DNA of 64,000 bases from a virus: the IMG/VR virus record IMGVR_UViG_3300032213_003144, positions 64,001 through 128,000 of that record; one strand, given 5' to 3'. Position 1 is the first letter of the stretch; each line of letters starts with the position of its first letter. A program made the position numbers and the translations under genes. The notes beneath the pieces are model-generated. The model had not been told where the DNA came from. It did no database searches and worked only from the letters and a program-made list of their open reading frames with translations. Positions 2,695 to 43,716 of this stretch are shown piece after piece.

Positions 2695-3426
2695 ATGAGA
2701 AACATTGATGTCGAGTACATAGGTGACCCCAAAGCTGGGTTTTTGGTTTATAGAAACATACTTACCGAAGACCTTAGAATTCCAGAACGCCTAGAAGCAA
2801 CAATAGGCGACAGCACCACTCCTCCTTATTCGTGGATGCAGGCCCTTGTCGGTGATGGTCAAGTAATGAAGGATTACAGGGATTGCGTTGACTGCAAGAT
2901 GAGCCCGGCACATTTTCAAAACTGTCCAGAGCAATACTCAGAACTCATCAACATATACAACGACACTGTCGTTGGATTGACTGCTTGCTTGCAAGATTAC
3001 GAATCCAGGTACAACATACGTATGGACTTCATGGAAGCAATCAACTACGTCCGATACAACGAGGGTCAGCACTTCAATGTTCACGCCGACCACGGTTTTT
3101 CATACGTCTGCACCGTGTCTTCGGTCATGTATCTTAACGATGATTACGACGGCGGCGAGCTTTGGTTTCCGTACTTAGATGTTACGTTTAAGCCTAAATA
3201 CGGAGACATAGTTTTATTTCCGTCAACATTCATCTATTCTCATGCATCCAAACCTGTCACCAGGGGAACCAAGTATGCAGCTGTAACCATGTTTGACTAC
3301 AACGACAGGTTCCATAAACAGTGGAAGGGCTACGGCAAGAACATAGACGGAACCGACGCTGAATACGGACCCGGAATCGTTAGCCCAACGGCAAACCAAG
3401 TCGAAAGATTTGTATTCAAAAAATGA
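2695..3426 (+). CDS. 2OG-Fe(II) oxygenase, prolyl-4-hydroxylase-like
   Basis: RY..GQHF.VHAD...YLNDDYDGGEL...FPS...H..KPVT.GTKY (Lys 2OG ligand as in P4H). Confidence 0.85.
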   Translation: MRNIDVEYIGDPKAGFLVYRNILTEDLRIPERLEATIGDSTTPPYSWMQALVGDGQVMKDYRDCVDCKMSPAHFQNCPEQYSELINIYNDTVVGLTACLQDYESRYNIRMDFMEAINYVRYNEGQHFNVHADHGFSYVCTVSSVMYLNDDYDGGELWFPYLDVTFKPKYGDIVLFPSTFIYSHASKPVTRGTKYAAVTMFDYNDRFHKQWKGYGKNIDGTDAEYGPGIVSPTANQVERFVFKK

Positions 3427-4124
3427 CAAAATTATTTCTTAAACAAACACATCAGAGCCCACCACTCATACAACAGTCGAGGATTAAGCGTGACTGGATG
3501 GACGCTACTTATAATAAACACGCCTATCAATGTCTTCCAATGACGGTAGCCAATGTGTATGGATGGGAGTTGATTCTCGAAGAGGACCTAGTTGTTCAAT
3601 GGGATGGCGGGAATACTCCACCGACAATTATCTCTGGGGAGACGACCTCCTCTGGTCGGGTTCAGGCAATATCTTCGATAATCGGAATGATTTCAATAAA
3701 TATGGGCTGGGTAATAAATACAGAAGAGGGATACAACACCTGGATTTCTGGTTCGCCGAATTACTTCTTGGACGGAGCGGTTCCATTAACTGCAACAATT
3801 CCTAGTCATTGGTGGCCAGACGAATCCCAGATGAATTGGAAGATAACCAAAATTGGAGAGCCGGTAACATTTGCGGCGGGAACCCCATTTTGTTTTTTTA
3901 ATATCTACGACAACTCGATACTCGAGAATGTTGAGATTGTTCGGTCAAGTCTTTGGAGCGACCCTGAGCTCGTTGCGTCTCGCATGAAATACGGGGAAAT
4001 GAAGGCAAAAAATAATGTTGAAAAGCCGTGGACGTGGACAAAAGGTATTCGTACAGGTCTTGACGCGGACGGTAAACAAATAGGGCCTACATTCACTGGT
4101 CTGCCAAAACTAGCCAATCCATAG
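3423..4124 (+). CDS. DUF6065-like protein
   Basis: RDWMD...HAYQCLPMTVAN.YGW...GSPNY...MNWKIT...PFCF pattern; family commonly found beside phage 2OG oxygenases. Confidence 0.7.
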   Translation: MTKLFLKQTHQSPPLIQQSRIKRDWMDATYNKHAYQCLPMTVANVYGWELILEEDLVVQWDGGNTPPTIISGETTSSGRVQAISSIIGMISINMGWVINTEEGYNTWISGSPNYFLDGAVPLTATIPSHWWPDESQMNWKITKIGEPVTFAAGTPFCFFNIYDNSILENVEIVRSSLWSDPELVASRMKYGEMKAKNNVEKPWTWTKGIRTGLDADGKQIGPTFTGLPKLANP

Positions 4125-8090: not shown

Positions 8091-8944
8091 TTCCCGAAAG
8101 TGAAGCGGCGGAATACGCCAAACAAATATCATCAACCCAATCAGTTTCAATATTGATTTATTCGTTTGCCAGCATTTGTTTGTACATTCTAAATATTGCT
8201 GCGTACCAGAACGATTTATATGGTCTTCTGATAGCTTTGCCTATTAGCGCTATAGTTTCATACTATATTTTTTCCACTGTTCACGAAGCAGTACACAATT
8301 CCGTAGTCCCATCAAATAGAAAAATAAATGACTTAATTGGACGGGTTTTTGCTTTTGTTTTAAATATGGATTTTGCATCATTTAGAAAAATACATCAACA
8401 GCACCATATTCATGCGAATTCTAAGCGCGACCCAGATTCCATATTTGGAGAACAGGGTAAGCGCTCCTATGTCATTACTATGCCAACATTTTTGGTTTTA
8501 TTGCGAATATTCGTTGTGCTCCCAAGAAATATACGAATGAAATTTATTAAGAATTTAAGCGGCAGGACAAAAGTGTTTATTTACTTATACCAAAAAGACA
8601 ATAGTCAATGTCGAGTATATGTAATAAATTTCTACTTGGCACTTATTTCGCTAACCATATTTGGGTTTGATTCCGTGATGATGTTTTGCTATATGTCTTC
8701 AATGCTGGCAATGTTCATTATCTATCCAATGGTAACCTGGTTGCCGCATTTGTCTATTTTTGATAGAGAAGAACACGCTGTCGATAAATATAAAACGACC
8801 AAAATACAAGGGGGCCGACTTAGTCCACTTACCCTATTCCCAATACCTCATCATTTGACCCACCATCTTTACCCCAGTGTTCCTGTTTCAAGACTGAAAA
8901 AGATGTCAAAATTTATACAACCGATGTTGGGTAGTGCCAAGTAA
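8087..8944 (+). CDS. Membrane fatty-acid desaturase/hydroxylase family
   Basis: Three His boxes HEAVH, HQQHH, HHLTHH plus transmembrane segments. Confidence 0.8.
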   Translation: MIPESEAAEYAKQISSTQSVSILIYSFASICLYILNIAAYQNDLYGLLIALPISAIVSYYIFSTVHEAVHNSVVPSNRKINDLIGRVFAFVLNMDFASFRKIHQQHHIHANSKRDPDSIFGEQGKRSYVITMPTFLVLLRIFVVLPRNIRMKFIKNLSGRTKVFIYLYQKDNSQCRVYVINFYLALISLTIFGFDSVMMFCYMSSMLAMFIIYPMVTWLPHLSIFDREEHAVDKYKTTKIQGGRLSPLTLFPIPHHLTHHLYPSVPVSRLKKMSKFIQPMLGSAK

Positions 8945-11267: not shown

Positions 11268-12154
11268 TTTTCAACGATTCAAAAGCCGAACATCTTGGTG
11301 GTGGTGTTGTTGTATTTCGCAATGCTGTATCTGTTAATTGGGAGTTTGCTAATAATATTTCAAAAGAAATAGTTGATAGAGAAGTTGTAGAAATGTATTC
11401 TCCGGCAATAAATCCAGATAGCGGCAAAGAAGAATACGTAAACAGAAGTGGATACTTCTTTTCTAAAACCGGAATCGACAAAATGCCCAAAAGGGGCTCA
11501 AGGGTTCATCAGGACACCAGGGGCGAGGTTGTCGAGTTGTTTACATTTTTAGAAGACTCAAAAGATAGGTACTTGTTCAAATACATGCACATGTTTCCAT
11601 TATCATATAAAAATATTTGGTGGAAAGTTAAAGGGCATTTAGTTAACTATTCGTCTGAATGTGGTGGATACATCGGTGAACACAGTGACACCAGCGTTGA
11701 CTATGTTTACGGCATTCCTCACCCACCCCATCAGTTGGCGTCAAGAAATACGCTCTCTTGCATTGTGTATTTTGGCAGCTGCGTTGATGGACACATTCCT
11801 TCTGGGCCTGGTGATTTTACTGGTGGACATCATAAATTTACATATCTTGATATTGAGTACATCCCAAACCGAGGGGACATACTGATGTTCCCGTCAAACT
11901 ATGTAGCAGCACACGAGGTAACACCAGTTAGGTCAGGAAATAGATTCACCTATCTCGGATGGTATGCACACGGAACTCCAAACCCAAACGTCAATGAAGA
12001 AGTCGAGGACCCAGGAGTCAATCCAGAAAAAGCCGCAATATCATCAAATGTTTATATCCCATATTTAAGAGATAAATTCTTGGATTATCTAGACTCTGTT
12101 GGTGAAGATAAATCTTCAAAAACATATAGACTTGCCCTCGGGGAAGGCATATGA
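11264..12154 (+). CDS. 2OG-Fe(II) oxygenase (LGGGVVVF paralog family)
   Basis: HSD, FTGG, FPSNY..AHEV, GNRFTYL. Confidence 0.85.
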   Translation: MIFNDSKAEHLGGGVVVFRNAVSVNWEFANNISKEIVDREVVEMYSPAINPDSGKEEYVNRSGYFFSKTGIDKMPKRGSRVHQDTRGEVVELFTFLEDSKDRYLFKYMHMFPLSYKNIWWKVKGHLVNYSSECGGYIGEHSDTSVDYVYGIPHPPHQLASRNTLSCIVYFGSCVDGHIPSGPGDFTGGHHKFTYLDIEYIPNRGDILMFPSNYVAAHEVTPVRSGNRFTYLGWYAHGTPNPNVNEEVEDPGVNPEKAAISSNVYIPYLRDKFLDYLDSVGEDKSSKTYRLALGEGI

Positions 12155-12879
12155 AATTAACACACCTCGGAAGCGGAATAGTATTAGTACGAAATTTAGT
12201 CGAAATTTCGCACGATGACACCAATGAAATAAGTGGAATATTCAACTCAACGGCACCACAAGGTTTTTCGATTGTTAATGGGAAAATAATAAGTGATGGT
12301 GGATATGAGTTTGACGAGATTGGTAGGAGCAAGTCTCCGACCAGATATACAGACATAGGAGAATTCGCTATAACAAAGAAGTTGAGGGAGTCAATGTATT
12401 CAGCAATCGTTGAATACTGTAAAGTATTCCCAGTTGCTCTTGAGTGTATAACTGGGCAGACTGATGGCTACATGATTAGATATGGTCACGGAAGTGATAT
12501 GGGTCCACACTCGGATTGCAATCTTCCGTACAAACCTGGAACCCTTGAGCCGATGACAAGTAGTCCTGCATTCAATACTCTTACAACCTCTATATTTCTT
12601 AACGACGGGTACGCCGGGGGGGAGGTGACTTTCAGGATGTGGGGAATCACGGTTAAGCCAGAAGCTGGAACTGCAATTATCTATCCATCAAATTTCATTG
12701 GCTGCCACGAGGTTGCGGAAGTCAGCGATGGAGAAAGGTGGGCTTTTCTTAGTTGGTTTTTCCACGGAAACGGACAGGAGAGCAAAGATGGTTCCTATGA
12801 GTGGTCCCAGCAACTAAAGCAAAAAGTTGGACTTGGAAATATTTTTCAGAAAAACATTCTAATAGGGGATATTAGCTGA
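12151..12879 (+). CDS. 2OG-Fe(II) oxygenase (LGGGVVVF paralog family)
   Basis: LGSGIVLV, HSD, FLNDGYAGGE, YPSNF..CHEV, GERWAFL. Confidence 0.85.
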   Translation: MKLTHLGSGIVLVRNLVEISHDDTNEISGIFNSTAPQGFSIVNGKIISDGGYEFDEIGRSKSPTRYTDIGEFAITKKLRESMYSAIVEYCKVFPVALECITGQTDGYMIRYGHGSDMGPHSDCNLPYKPGTLEPMTSSPAFNTLTTSIFLNDGYAGGEVTFRMWGITVKPEAGTAIIYPSNFIGCHEVAEVSDGERWAFLSWFFHGNGQESKDGSYEWSQQLKQKVGLGNIFQKNILIGDIS

Positions 12880-39671: not shown

Positions 39672-40232
39672 TCACCTGTCAGCATTTGGTGGCGATTCAA
39701 AGAATGGCCCAGAAATACCCTCTTTCCCGGATGGGGCCTCTATCGGGACCCATGCACGAGCATAGTTGTGTTCTTTTATCTTTCGCACTTTTATCAGACT
39801 GCTGTCAAGCATTAACGATAACTCATCAGATTTCATGCACAACATGTCATCAAAATCCTGGTTCGTGTAGCGACCTGACCGTTTCATCTCGCGAACTATT
39901 TTTGAAAGCTTTGCTGCAACAATGACAGATTTTCCTCGATTTAGCTGAATGTGCATCATCATTGCTTCTAGCTTGTCGCAATCATGGAATACAACAGGTA
40001 TACGATTGCCGTGAATTTCAGATATTTCAGAAATACTCATAAATAGGTTGTATCTCTCCGAACCATCTATTATCTCGCCAGTCTCCCTCCGTGCGTGTAT
40101 TGGGTGTATGAACCCATGCTGCATTAAGGATGAAGAAATTACGAGCAGCTCAGGTCTAATCGTGTATGTTGTCTTCCAATCTGGGATAACGAGCGAGCCA
40201 GCACTAACCCATTCAATTTTTATTTCTTTCAT
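39672..40232 (-). CDS. ParB/Srx-like N-terminal domain protein (IbrB-like)
   Basis: SL..HGFI.PI, IIDG.ER, IPVV, AM..HI.LNR.K. Confidence 0.7.
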   Translation of the reverse strand: MKEIKIEWVSAGSLVIPDWKTTYTIRPELLVISSSLMQHGFIHPIHARRETGEIIDGSERYNLFMSISEISEIHGNRIPVVFHDCDKLEAMMMHIQLNRGKSVIVAAKLSKIVREMKRSGRYTNQDFDDMLCMKSDELSLMLDSSLIKVRKIKEHNYARAWVPIEAPSGKEGISGPFFESPPNADR

Positions 40233-41356
40233 AGTTCTAGTTCGCTTTCAATTATTCTCACTGCATTTGCTTTGGTCTTTGGTCCAACAGGGGTCGGCGA
40301 ATTAACATCTATCTCATTGAGCATGAGATTTCTTATTAACCAAGAAATCGGATATCCATATGGGTCCTGAATATGTTTTTTTCTAAACTTTGAAACATAA
40401 ACACGCGCTTCCATTTTTCTTCTATCGCCAACAAGATACTCTTCAATAAACTCAGATGCACCATCAAATCCTCTACCAGAGTATCTGGCAATAAGGCTTT
40501 CGCTGTCAAATTCAGGCCACCACCTTCGCTGCGCGTCGATGAACGGGAAGCACTCCCAAAGCCTGTCATAAAATTCTGGCTCAGTAGCAATAACATCGCC
40601 TATCCTTCTGATTGCTGTTGCATGGAGCGGTATCCCAACCCTCGTATTACTACCAGTAGCTACCGCCAAGTCGTAGTACTCACAGTATTCGGCTCCGTGT
40701 TCTTCTGTTATGAACTTAAATACGTCATTCGTATTCCAGTCATAAATTACTTTTGCAAATTTAAGAGGAATTCCAGCCTTGAGTTTATATGGAGTATTGA
40801 TGTAATTTTCGTGCAGTTTCTGGACTACGGAGCGATATCGCACCATTGACTCACTAGCCCTAACTCCTGTAAGAAACGCAACATTGCCCTTTTTACCCTG
40901 CATCGTGTAGTAGTCGGTTTGTTCAGGGAGAGACGTACTATGCGATAGACCAAAGTGGTTACCGTTGATAGCAAACTCTGGCATGTCTCTTAGCCATCTT
41001 TGCTGCTCGCCTCTTTGCTCACTCCATAGGATTGTTGTGAGCCTATATCCAAGAATCCAAATTTCAGCAGGGTATGGCAAGCAGTACCACTCCATATCAA
41101 CCCAGTCGTAGTTCCTGACCTTCTCAACGTATTCAACAACGCTTGGGCTCACCATCTCTTCGTCACGGAAAATAACTTTTACCGGACCGAGTCCTCTTTC
41201 TTCGTGCACTTCTTTGGCTAGATAGAGAATTGCTGTTGAGTCTTTCCCACCAGAAAACTGAACGCACACCGTGTCGAACTGGTCGTAGACATGCCTAATA
41301 CGCTGTCTTGCAGCATCCACGCATGTCATATCTAGGAATAATCTCTGTCTAGTCAT
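40229..41356 (-). CDS. PAPS reductase-family PP-loop protein (IbrA-like)
   Basis: V.FSGGKDS, F.DEE, TGVRA.ES..R, IYDW...DV. Confidence 0.85.
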   Translation of the reverse strand: MTRQRLFLDMTCVDAARQRIRHVYDQFDTVCVQFSGGKDSTAILYLAKEVHEERGLGPVKVIFRDEEMVSPSVVEYVEKVRNYDWVDMEWYCLPYPAEIWILGYRLTTILWSEQRGEQQRWLRDMPEFAINGNHFGLSHSTSLPEQTDYYTMQGKKGNVAFLTGVRASESMVRYRSVVQKLHENYINTPYKLKAGIPLKFAKVIYDWNTNDVFKFITEEHGAEYCEYYDLAVATGSNTRVGIPLHATAIRRIGDVIATEPEFYDRLWECFPFIDAQRRWWPEFDSESLIARYSGRGFDGASEFIEEYLVGDRRKMEARVYVSKFRKKHIQDPYGYPISWLIRNLMLNEIDVNSPTPVGPKTKANAVRIIESELEL

Positions 41357-42162
41357 GGTGTGTGCTCTGAGATAAATGAAATTAATTTCTCAGCAACAGT
41401 GTCACCTTCCAATCCTGCGTCAGAACGTAGCCACTTTATGAACGTATACCACTCAGCTTGTTGCTGAGTGTCGTCAAAAACTATTGTGTACTGAACAACA
41501 GCCTGTGGTGCCGAGCGAGGGGAAACCGTGGTTGAACCCCTAATCACTGCGTCGTTCTGGTCGACTCCAGGACGAACATTTATTTGCTGATTTCCATCTT
41601 TGTCTTTTGTTATTGAGACGGTATTTAGGTCGACCGACGTGTCTTTCTTTACTTTTTCTTCTTCTTCTTCTTCTTTAGAAAAAATAATTGGTGGAACGTA
41701 TTTGTCCGAACCAAGAACTTGATACTCTTCCCTGATTGATGTCTGTTCAAATTCTGCAATCTCGAACTCATCCCATCCAAGACTGTCAACGAGCTCTGGA
41801 TACTCTTCGTGAATTTCAAGGATGAACTCACTTAGCAATTCCGCTTCTGTGTAGCCAAGCTCCATTGTTCTGTTGTCGGCAATAGCAAATGCAATCGCCT
41901 TCTTATTGTCAACGTCATAGCTAACTGCTGCTATCTTGTCCCATCCAAGAAGTTTTGCTGCTTCTAGCTGATGGTTACCCGCAATAACTGTTGCCGTTCC
42001 ATCGTCGTTTGGGCGAATAACAATTGGTTTTATCTGCCCAAATTCTTTATATGAAGCCATGATTGACTGGACGTTACCTTTTCTTGGGTTTCCCTCAAGT
42101 GGAACAAGTTTGTCGACATCAACAGCAAGTTGCTTTAATGATTCGTGAATTTTATCTGACAT
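41353..42162 (-). CDS. ParB/Srx N-terminal domain protein
   Basis: NPRKG, S..EFGQ.KPIV, VIAGNH.LEAAK.LGW, A.AIADNR. Confidence 0.85.
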   Translation of the reverse strand: MSDKIHESLKQLAVDVDKLVPLEGNPRKGNVQSIMASYKEFGQIKPIVIRPNDDGTATVIAGNHQLEAAKLLGWDKIAAVSYDVDNKKAIAFAIADNRTMELGYTEAELLSEFILEIHEEYPELVDSLGWDEFEIAEFEQTSIREEYQVLGSDKYVPPIIFSKEEEEEEKVKKDTSVDLNTVSITKDKDGNQQINVRPGVDQNDAVIRGSTTVSPRSAPQAVVQYTIVFDDTQQQAEWYTFIKWLRSDAGLEGDTVAEKLISFISEHTP

Positions 42163-42164
42163 AG

Positions 42165-42500
42165 TTATACCTGTGTTCTGACGTTTGCATTGAGTGTTCT
42201 CATTGCGTCAATTGATGTTCTTAGGGATAGAAGTAATTCTCTCTTCGTTTTAACTAACGCCTCTGCGCACCTGTAGTCAAAATTTTGCTCGTCCATCTTG
42301 TAGTCCGCCCAAGCTTCTCGCTCCTTGATTGAACCCTTCGCGGATAAATATTCGCGAGCCCATGTTGACTTATAGAGCGCATCTTTTTTTGCAGCGTCCA
42401 TCGCTAAGGTTTCAAATTTTTCTGTTTCTGTTTCAAGTCTGTCTATTAGTCTTATAAGCTCTTGTTCAATTTCTACCTGGCTTATGGGTGATGTTCTCAT
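42165..42500 (-). CDS. Coiled-coil hypothetical protein
   Basis: ATG 42500 coupled to the RuvC stop; GGGG RBS-like run. Confidence 0.6.
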   Translation of the reverse strand: MRTSPISQVEIEQELIRLIDRLETETEKFETLAMDAAKKDALYKSTWAREYLSAKGSIKEREAWADYKMDEQNFDYRCAEALVKTKRELLLSLRTSIDAMRTLNANVRTQV

Positions 42501-43027
42501 TATTCCCCTTTTTTCTCGATTGGCGTCCAATCTACCTTGGCTAGGGCATCCATGTTCTGTGCCGGCCAATTAAATCGTGGTTTACCTATGTGGGCCAAGC
42601 CCATCTCCTGCAGAACCCACGCGTCACATCTGTCATCAGCTCCAGGATTTTGCCAAACAATTCCAGTACGTGCTGATATAGACGAAATCACTTCATTTTT
42701 TGATGCGTTTCCTTTTCCGGTTGCAAACTTTGCTCGACACGTTGGGGGTATCGTTACGTAGGGAATTCCAATTTGCCACAGCAGTAGGCGAATCACCCCA
42801 CCGAGCTCTCCAATAGAGAAAGCCTGACCGCTGCGTGAAGCAAACGAGTAACCCTCAAGCATGACGGCCTTTACCTCGTATCTATTGATTAGGGATTCTA
42901 TTTCCCTTTTTACTAGCCAGAGTCTTTCTGGTCCAGACTTATTAAAAGAGATAACTCCAGATTCGTCGCCAAACGCATACCCAGTTGATGTTAGGGATAG
43001 GTCTAGTCCAAGAAAATCGTTTATCAC
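42500..43027 (-). CDS. RuvC-like Holliday junction resolvase
   Basis: LGLDLSLTSTG, VMLEGY, ELGG, P...KFATGKGNASK, DD.CDA; leaderless TAGTAT-6 nt-GTG. Confidence 0.85.
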   Translation of the reverse strand: MINDFLGLDLSLTSTGYAFGDESGVISFNKSGPERLWLVKREIESLINRYEVKAVMLEGYSFASRSGQAFSIGELGGVIRLLLWQIGIPYVTIPPTCRAKFATGKGNASKNEVISSISARTGIVWQNPGADDRCDAWVLQEMGLAHIGKPRFNWPAQNMDALAKVDWTPIEKKGE

Positions 43028-43044
43028 AGTGACATACTAACCTA

Positions 43045-43085
43045 AAAGCAAAAACCCACCGAACATCCAGCGAGTTCGGTGGGTT
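43045..43085 (-). terminator. Intrinsic terminator
   Basis: 12-bp perfect stem AACCCACCGAAC/GTTCGGTGGGTT, 9-nt loop, then TTTGCTTTT on the - strand. Confidence 0.8.
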
Positions 43086-43186
43086 AAATTCGAACCGTTT
43101 GCGGCGGCTCAGAATCATTGCCGTGTAGGAACACTCGACTCTTGGACCACCGCCTTTCTTCCGTGAAGGGTAGATATCGGCTAGAC
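43045..43186 (-). ncRNA. Candidate sRNA-1 (~140 nt) with a segment complementary to the 16S rRNA 3' end
   Basis: TGcTAACCT -10 at 43193-43201, predicted +1 G at 43186, terminator at 43045-85; contains AGAAAGGCGGUGGUCCA. Confidence 0.55.
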
Positions 43187-43252
43187 GAATTAAGGTTAGC
43201 ACTTATGTTATGCACTAATAAGTGAAGAGCTTTTAAATAATGTTCCACTAAA

Positions 43253-43316
43253 GTAAAAAACGCAAAAGCCGAGTGAGTCTCCCCACCCGACTTTCGCGCC
43301 TATAACGGTCCTAAGA
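43253..43316 (-). ncRNA. Candidate sRNA-2 (~63 nt) antisense to 23S rRNA helix 69
   Basis: TATCGT -10 at 43323-28; 5' CUUAGGACCGUUAUAG, then an 18-bp WC/GU stem with GAGA loop and U tract. Confidence 0.6.
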
Positions 43317-43374: not shown

Positions 43375-43716
43375 TTATCTTTCCCAGCCATGTTTTGCTA
43401 ACCCTAAATCAAACGCAAGTTGAGGGTAATTACCAATTCTTACGTGACACAGCCTGCAAACTGCAAGTACATTTTCCTCATCAAGTATGGAGCCACCCTG
43501 AGAGCGTCTGATTATTTCGTGAACATCCCTACTGAGATGTTGGTTGTATGTCGTCTTGCCGTCGTGAGTTGCAAAAACTTTACAAGCCTCGCATGCCGGT
43601 CTTTCCCTTAGTATTTTTTCAACAAACTTACGCCGTTCGACATAAATCTCTTCGGTTTTTGCACTTCTTTTTTTAGGAGGGCCACTTCTCTTGATTGGTT
43701 TGTTTCTTCGAATCAT
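43375..43716 (-). CDS. HNH endonuclease-like protein
   Basis: CEAC, DVHEIIRRSQGG, NVLAVCRLCH. Confidence 0.75.
   Translation of the reverse strand: MIRRNKPIKRSGPPKKRSAKTEEIYVERRKFVEKILRERPACEACKVFATHDGKTTYNQHLSRDVHEIIRRSQGGSILDEENVLAVCRLCHVRIGNYPQLAFDLGLAKHGWER

Follow-up and report, generated by a model that had tools for sequence, protein, structure and literature searches.

Small RNAs of large freshwater phages that match the 3′ tail of host 16S rRNA and probably grip the ribosome

A group of large freshwater phages carries a small RNA with which, to judge from its sequence, they probably grip the ribosomes of their host. Comparison of homologous loci shows a conserved, structured and apparently free-standing phage RNA of about 140 nt, here called unit 2, that is previously undescribed and has a predicted binding geometry like that of the rreB mRNA. 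The copy described here lies on the minus strand of the window, the 64,000-nucleotide stretch of DNA that was analysed (positions 64,001 to 128,000 of IMG/VR virus record IMGVR_UViG_3300032213_003144, which has 170,425 bases). Unless otherwise stated, coordinates are those of the window.

Unit 2 and a shorter companion, unit 1, are both promoter-terminator units and both lie in a gap of 347 bases between two minus-strand neighbours, an HNH-like ORF (43375..43716) and a RuvC-like resolvase gene (42500..43027). The RuvC-like gene (Pfam PF02075, E=4.8e-6) is the constant downstream neighbour and served as the synteny marker, while the upstream ORF has no Pfam match and is called HNH-like by motif inspection only. 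A separate minus-strand -10 box, TAGTAT (43034..43039), stands 6 nt ahead of the GTG of the RuvC-like gene and points to a leaderless promoter independent of the RNA; a similar box precedes RuvC in most homologous loci. Downstream of RuvC is a trio of ParB-N, PAPS-reductase-like and ParB-like genes (39672-42162, minus strand), two of which are supported by Pfam. In many relatives (L027-L046, L077, L083) an inserted variable gene on the opposite strand separates the HNH-like gene from unit 1; its N-terminus is often of low complexity. An RNA-guided nuclease role with the flanking RuvC and HNH proteins was considered but is unsupported, and unit 1 occurs without RuvC too.

A WhiB-like gene is found outside the window, at about position 151,900 of the genome. 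As whiB is a marker for freshwater actinophages (PMC10914622), an actinobacterial host is indicated, and the carriers of the family are probably large freshwater phages encoding WhiB, hence actinophages. Also outside the window, between about 2,700 and 27,000 of the genome, a repeated TAATAGATAACT motif, likely a phage promoter or operator, precedes many short early-type genes. BLASTN against 50,697 GenBank phages returned no similar DNA, and RuvC relatives in GenBank phages match at less than 35% only.

The sequence-only reading of this region had described an extended -10 box, a transcription start and a terminator, all of which were located as described. The box (TGnTAnnnT, 43193..43201) has an invariant T-A and a nearly invariant TG among 30 homologues. 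It is followed by a predicted +1 at about 43186 and by an intrinsic terminator (43045..43085) composed of a hairpin (43085-43053) with loop element F (43071-43066) and a U-rich tail, so that the family alignment and covariance model predict an RNA spanning 43045..43186. From its 5′ end, this RNA comprises element A (UCUAGC, 43180..43185), predicted to form a pseudoknot or kissing helix with the terminator-loop element, and the 17-nt core B (43143..43159), which complements the single-stranded 16S 3′ tail (E. coli ~1528 to the end), with the C at 43152 facing U1537. There follow a conserved UC(U/G/C)AG motif (43134..43138), which occupies the second-codon position of AUG-bearing homologues and closes hairpin P2 (43123..43134) with its last G; element D (GGCAA, 43118..43122), whose predicted partner is the 3′ tail at 43051-43047, closing the 3′ domain; and a variable hairpin P4 (43088..43115), which includes GCCGCC (43108-43103), an alternative sequesterer of core B. 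All of these features are on the minus strand.

The Infernal search of Rfam that had been suggested for this region was run, and the window matches no Rfam 15 family: there were no hits at the gathering threshold, and a search by E-value gave weak terminator-level matches only. Likenesses by eye to an HDV-like ribozyme and to ZTP or c-di-AMP riboswitches were rejected, as the topology is mismatched and Rfam is silent. Three short motifs, UCUAG, UC(U/G)AG and CU(A/G)GA (43180-43185, 43134-43138 and 43066-43071, minus strand), are similar or complementary to the base of 16S helix 45; the second of them remains conserved in members that have lost the loop partner. Invasion of helix 45 by UCUAG is not favoured by cofolding.

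To census the family, 80 loci were fetched by RuvC protein alone and reduced to 46 distinct upstream regions. A second unit is present in 38 of these, and all 38 contain the core, with predicted 16S pairing energies of -19.8 to -26.3 kcal/mol; loss of this motif had been named earlier as grounds for abandoning the proposal. The other 8 regions have unit 1 alone, abutting RuvC, and no 16S partner (-7.4 to -13.8 kcal/mol). Further members were added by pattern scans, the first of which yielded mostly chance matches. An alignment of 30 representatives has a mean column identity of 52% and conserves the extended -10, the core, the UCUAG motif, a GGCA motif and the terminator; covariance model R1 recovers further members at E<1e-10. 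Unit 2 lies upstream of RuvC wherever RuvC is visible, and on a RuvC tree (quick and unrooted, with its base unresolved) it has undergone at least 8 losses or gains while RuvC itself remained intact. As a search for a chromosomal counterpart that the phage might have captured from its host, a survey of 401 genomes from the class of an Acidimicrobiia genome, with Actinomycetes sampled by single genomes only, found the family pattern in 4 genomes versus 8 control matches, which is background.

The actinobacterial 16S end against which the core was originally compared is real: it was matched exactly more than 120 times in genome contigs, most of them from Actinomycetota, Acidimicrobiia among them. 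Mycobacterial toxins cut 16S rRNA at C/ACCU, 11 nt from the end (PMC12620021, PMC12274833), so the mature mycobacterial end must be ...UUUCU. The pairing first proposed is also right: 15 of 17 positions are identical to the complement, one forms a G-U pair and one is a C:U mismatch. The core is the sole site in the 170-kb genome with two or fewer mismatches to the 16S tail, and its duplex energy of -26.2 kcal/mol ranks first genome-wide on both strands, the next best being -24.7; the best duplexes in two dinucleotide-shuffled genomes reached -22.7 and -21.3 kcal/mol. That second-best partner (window 12615-12640, plus strand, -24.7 kcal/mol) combines a G-run with GAGGTGA, about 8 nt ahead of an ATG inside the called ORF 12151-12879; the ATG is possibly an internal start.

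When an RNA has an unchanging partner, bases that face U may swap between A and G, while bases that face C must stay G. Parsimony on the RuvC tree assigns 17 changes, 15 of them A/G, to the U-facing core positions p1, p3, p4 and p5, and a single change, a register shift, to the C-facing positions p2, p6 and p7 (binomial p about 6e-4 by our own arithmetic on a quick unrooted tree). Positions p9-p15 were partly fixed by the search patterns, and the bias-free evidence is that from p1-p8 and the synteny census. When 31 members were compared with an entire rRNA operon, 28 had their best site at the 16S end. The 16S precursor continues AAGG in 101 of 121 genomes; a U adjoins p1 in 5 of 60 variants and pairing stops at the mature 16S end in the other 55, while in one clade it runs 2-3 nt into the precursor trailer. 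Although pairing within the RNA itself could also contribute to the conservation of the core, these comparisons support selection for complementarity to the host 16S 3′ tail.

The pairing is interrupted where a Shine-Dalgarno (SD) sequence would be strongest. In a divergent clade the sequence is GGUGAUCCA, an exact Watson-Crick match, and in all 223 copies the in-register GGAGG is imperfect, with a bulge, mismatch or wobble at U1537/C1538. The bulges are 1-2 nt and vary in sequence; the interrupting bases differ between phages (C, A, U, CA, CG, UC or none). Because a perfect core is one mutation away, the break looks selected, as we infer it to be. To judge from the phage sequences, a host with a variant anti-SD matching the core perfectly is unlikely, given that the interrupting bases vary among phages and that GGAG is 7.4-fold enriched, and GGCG depleted, in phage genes.

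The covariation analysis that had likewise been suggested supports four helices: P2, GGCAA with the 3′ tail, the terminator, and a pseudoknot that joins the 5′ end to the terminator loop in about two-thirds of members. Together they are paired in 92% of cells, with two-sided changes in 18 of 27 pairs; none of 500 shuffles scored as high, and slid controls gave 36-47%. Two-sided changes occur in 4/4 pairs of P2, in 8/11 of the terminator hairpin and in 5/6 of the element A pseudoknot, which has 84% of cells paired and is missing from roughly one member in three. In the helix of GGCAA with the tail (93% of cells paired) changes are mostly one-sided, accompanied by compensating indels, seen by eye, in L087, L204 and L546. 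The 3′ domain conserves shape rather than sequence.

An earlier suggestion of two alternative folds holds for this copy and its clade, where both are possible, but a switch is not family-wide. In the minimum-energy fold the core is paired with GCCGCC, and the competing hairpin 43115-43088 can form; stretches of CCACC type that could cover the core recur in several clades at no fixed position. The core is partly hidden in every member, at an opening cost of 6-16 kcal/mol, and computed net 16S binding after unfolding is favourable in 31 of 31 members (-6.4 to -15.7 kcal/mol; -7.4 here). A 16-nt, start-codon-less mutant of rreB still sediments with ribosomes (PMC5711450), and by analogy it is very probable that unit 2, once transcribed, binds the 30S subunit.

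Whether the core drives translation was judged from the sequence downstream. The sequence-only reading saw no ORF there, which is correct for this copy, where no ATG, GTG or TTG lies 3-12 nt past the SD core, and for most members, but not for one group that keeps an AUG and a 14-17-codon ORF. Across the family, the triplet at the SD-distance start position takes 11 states through at least 16 changes. Non-AUG members conserve neither frame nor stop, using all three frames with stops at 5 to >50 codons, so that the conserved start and frame of a missed small gene behind an ordinary ribosome-binding site were not found. In the present copy, a GTG at 43134, 15 nt past the SD core, opens a 16-codon frame ending at 43084. 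It was rejected as a gene since it lies inside hairpin P2 and near relatives do not keep the frame, its stop being lost in L002, L004, L014 and L016 and early in L022 and L023. Overlapping ORFs of 86 and 54 aa were also rejected: they begin upstream of or at the promoter, and relatives have frameshifts or stops.

In the AUG group, which was enriched afterwards by pattern search, the AUG lies 6-7 nt past the SD core. The 12 distinct peptides begin MSSG and in most cases carry HG(K/E), and the ORFs differ by synonymous changes and frame-preserving indels. By these coding signatures, the members of the group are rreB-type small mRNAs. Its members (L524, L316, L552, L248, L262, L273, L562-L573) make up an unannotated small-peptide family. 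Among the commonest triplets of the non-AUG members are AGG, AAG, AUA and AUU; all four differ from AUG by a single base, a pattern that suggests that the start was lost repeatedly. On the unrooted tree, the non-coding form was probably derived in this way from an rreB-like small mRNA.

Most unit 2 members adjoin unit 1, an RNA antisense to 23S helix 69. Here, unit 1 is an RNA of ~60 nt (43255..43315, minus strand) with its own terminator and a 16-nt exact complement of 23S helix 69-70 (43315-43300). This complement matches real 23S sequences, has its best site in the whole rRNA operon at helix 69-70 (-28.2 kcal/mol), and varies in mostly wobble-compatible ways. Unit 1 is found in well over 100 loci, also without unit 2 and without RuvC, and the sequence of its terminator varies freely. 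The two RNAs occur in either order: the AUG group has unit 1 downstream rather than upstream, and in some loci unit 1 lies between unit 2 and RuvC. Since adjacent RNAs match both subunits in either order, a chance origin of either rRNA match is unlikely. Redundancy of the two RNAs is not indicated; none of the 46 synteny-selected loci is without both, but 0.7 would be expected by chance.

Two variations on unit 1 were seen. In L262 (about 3410-3475) and L564-L571, unit 1 lies downstream of unit 2 and has C for U (…GTTACAG); a host 23S with G at that position would pair with it. In L296 (about 8550-8720, minus strand), L299, L300, L301, L345 and L348, unit 1 has no RuvC after it and is followed by another conserved promoter-led element with GUCAAU and a long stem, which gave no match to model R1 and no consistent rRNA partner.

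What such an RNA might do is best explained, with slightly better than even chances in our estimate, by a reversible, non-productive tether that parks 30S subunits and, together with unit 1, keeps 30S and 50S apart. The exposed purine end of unit 2 would seed on the tail of a free 30S subunit, displace the weak self-pairing of unit 2 and form a 15-17-bp duplex broken midway through the SD core. Initiation would not follow, since there is no start codon at P-site distance and a folded domain comes immediately after, and the parked 30S would be closed to SD-led mRNA until the broken duplex was released or displaced. Unit 1 would do likewise to the 50S at helix 69, and the two RNAs would keep the subunits separate and restrain translation initiation in the infected cell. 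The fuller account, in which a two-RNA module pairs with the 30S anti-SD tail and 50S helix 69, parks or shields both, and acquired its 30S RNA from a small mRNA by repeated start loss, is more tentative, falling somewhat short of an even chance.

Dosage and selectivity limit how such parking could work. Overexpression of rreB by 20-fold did not slow growth, ribosomes being in excess (PMC5711450), so a sponge would need very high RNA levels. By a crude gene call, about 41% of phage ORFs have SD-like motifs versus a 10% background, and 13% look leaderless versus 3%; blanket SD blocking would thus hit phage genes too. A bias towards leaderless mRNA is weakly supported as the purpose, because the genes of the phage themselves rely on canonical SD motifs. 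Of the decoy or sponge that was originally suggested, the free-standing RNA and a partly hidden core selected for 16S-tail pairing stand, but the duplex could instead protect the tail.

Protection is the strongest rival, although we consider it unlikely: the RNA would cap the 16S tail of idle 30S subunits against RNase R or host toxins that cut the anti-SD, as a stand-in hibernation factor or anti-defence shield. [quoted passage not shown] The duplex ends precisely where the 16S tail does, real mRNAs would be able to displace the RNA at the broken SD core, and the phage itself depends on SD-led translation. The core is, however, broken at U1537, itself a reported toxin cut site (PMC12620021). 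Furthermore, unit 1 covers 23S 1914-1930, outside the helix-70 loop, and pairing with helix 69 is more simply inhibitory. MazF toxins cut the 23S in that loop, at a position that we take to be outside 1914-1930. Parking and protecting are compatible rather than exclusive.

An improbable alternative reverses the roles and makes the 30S a tool of the RNA, stabilising it as in STAB-SD or regulating a small ORF as in rreB, so that the active part is the 3′ domain or the peptide. In STAB-SD, an SD that does not lead to initiation blocks RNase J1 (PMC4113751); covariation gives good support to the 3′ domain, and the AUG group keeps a real ORF of 14-17 codons with frame-preserving indels. Yet the 3′ domain keeps its shape and not its sequence, the peptide is dispensable in most lineages, an ordinary SD would be enough for a stabiliser, and the adjoining anti-23S RNA is left unexplained.

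Less probable again is a ribosome-sensing attenuator of the RuvC/ParB/PAPS-reductase operon, in which, without 30S, GGUGG would pair with the 5′ arm of the terminator and permit read-through. Apart from the constant place of unit 2 upstream of RuvC, the 5-bp GGUGG-terminator pairing is possible in 149 of 150 cells and is the favoured truncated-transcript fold (P>0.5) in 13 of 30 members. Against this, core-terminator covariation is not above shuffles; in this copy the pairing is unfavourable, at +12.7 kcal/mol, with P=0.00 for the truncated transcript, and it is absent from the GGUGAUC clade. Neither the covarying antiterminator nor the promoterless downstream gene of an attenuator or riboswitch was found: RuvC has its own leaderless promoter past the terminator, and a read-through message would contain no SD for it. 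The losses and gains of unit 2 with RuvC intact and the loci where unit 1 intervenes argue in the same direction. Finally, action on immature 16S or pre-30S, which would block 3′-end maturation or factor binding or mark rRNA for decay and free nucleotides, is very improbable, for although both RNAs match late-folding functional sites and one clade reaches into the precursor trailer, the pairing otherwise ends at the mature end (55/60 variants) and helix 45 is essentially intact in cofolding.

The closest known case to the 30S parking RNA proposed here is the rreB mRNA, which with rreR belongs to the small mRNAs of Alphaproteobacteria (Hahn et al., PMC5711450). Like unit 2, rreB/rreR is a stand-alone ~150-nt transcript with its own promoter and terminator (PMC5711450), 16-17 nt of which complement the 16S 3′ end and are partly hidden in its own structure; its 14-18-codon ORF resembles the 14-17 codons of the AUG group. 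Unit 2 differs in being phage-encoded, in matching an actinobacterial-type tail and in being paired with an anti-23S RNA. Its duplex is broken or wobbled in the SD core, whereas that of rreB/rreR is perfect: against the ≥16 nt of perfect complementarity that defines rre RNAs, this copy has 15/17, and none of 223 family copies is unbroken Watson-Crick in register. The GUG of rreB/rreR overlaps the duplex, while the AUG of the AUG group has normal spacing. A start at the end of the complement with a conserved 14-18-codon ORF, the other mark of rre RNAs, is absent here and present in the AUG group in spirit only. No rre-type homology was found in Rfam, the best match of an AUG homologue being CC2171 at 11.7 bits against a cut-off of 75 (E=3.1).

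Other systems share single features. The STAB-SD of Bacillus thuringiensis cry3A mRNA is, as in unit 2, SD-like and near the 5′ end, and binds 30S without initiation (PMC4113751), but it is a cis element of a long mRNA, whereas unit 2 is a 140-nt terminated transcript with nothing to translate; the STAB-SD geometry would fit the core, but only about 100 nt of non-coding RNA follow it. HPF, RMF and RaiA (PMC7913689, PMC8406268) offer a possible functional likeness, in that they occupy the mRNA site of idle ribosomes, block initiation and protect rRNA. These hibernation factors are host proteins and the SD oligonucleotide is synthetic (PMC10901742), while unit 2 is a natural phage RNA with predicted base pairing. 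MazF-mt11 (PMC12274833) and RelE1 (PMC12620021) share the same actinobacterial 16S target nucleotides, but as irreversible host protein nucleases, where unit 2 would cover the site reversibly.

No description of a phage RNA that pairs with host rRNA was found in the literature searched, which included few subscription papers. To our knowledge, known phage small RNAs act on mRNAs or proteins. The family offers a candidate that is short and cheap to make and whose binding site, on a near-universal target, is predicted exactly; it comes with natural controls in AUG versus non-AUG members and in phages that have either one of the RNAs or both. With it one can ask by experiment whether RNA is able to park or protect ribosomal subunits, what purpose extended-SD RNAs such as rreB serve, and how a coding mini-gene becomes a non-coding ribosome ligand. 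If true, the two-RNA module would be a form of RNA-only ribosome control or anti-defence, and would bear on the way in which large phages deal with hosts such as freshwater actinobacteria, which are small, grow slowly and have few ribosomes.
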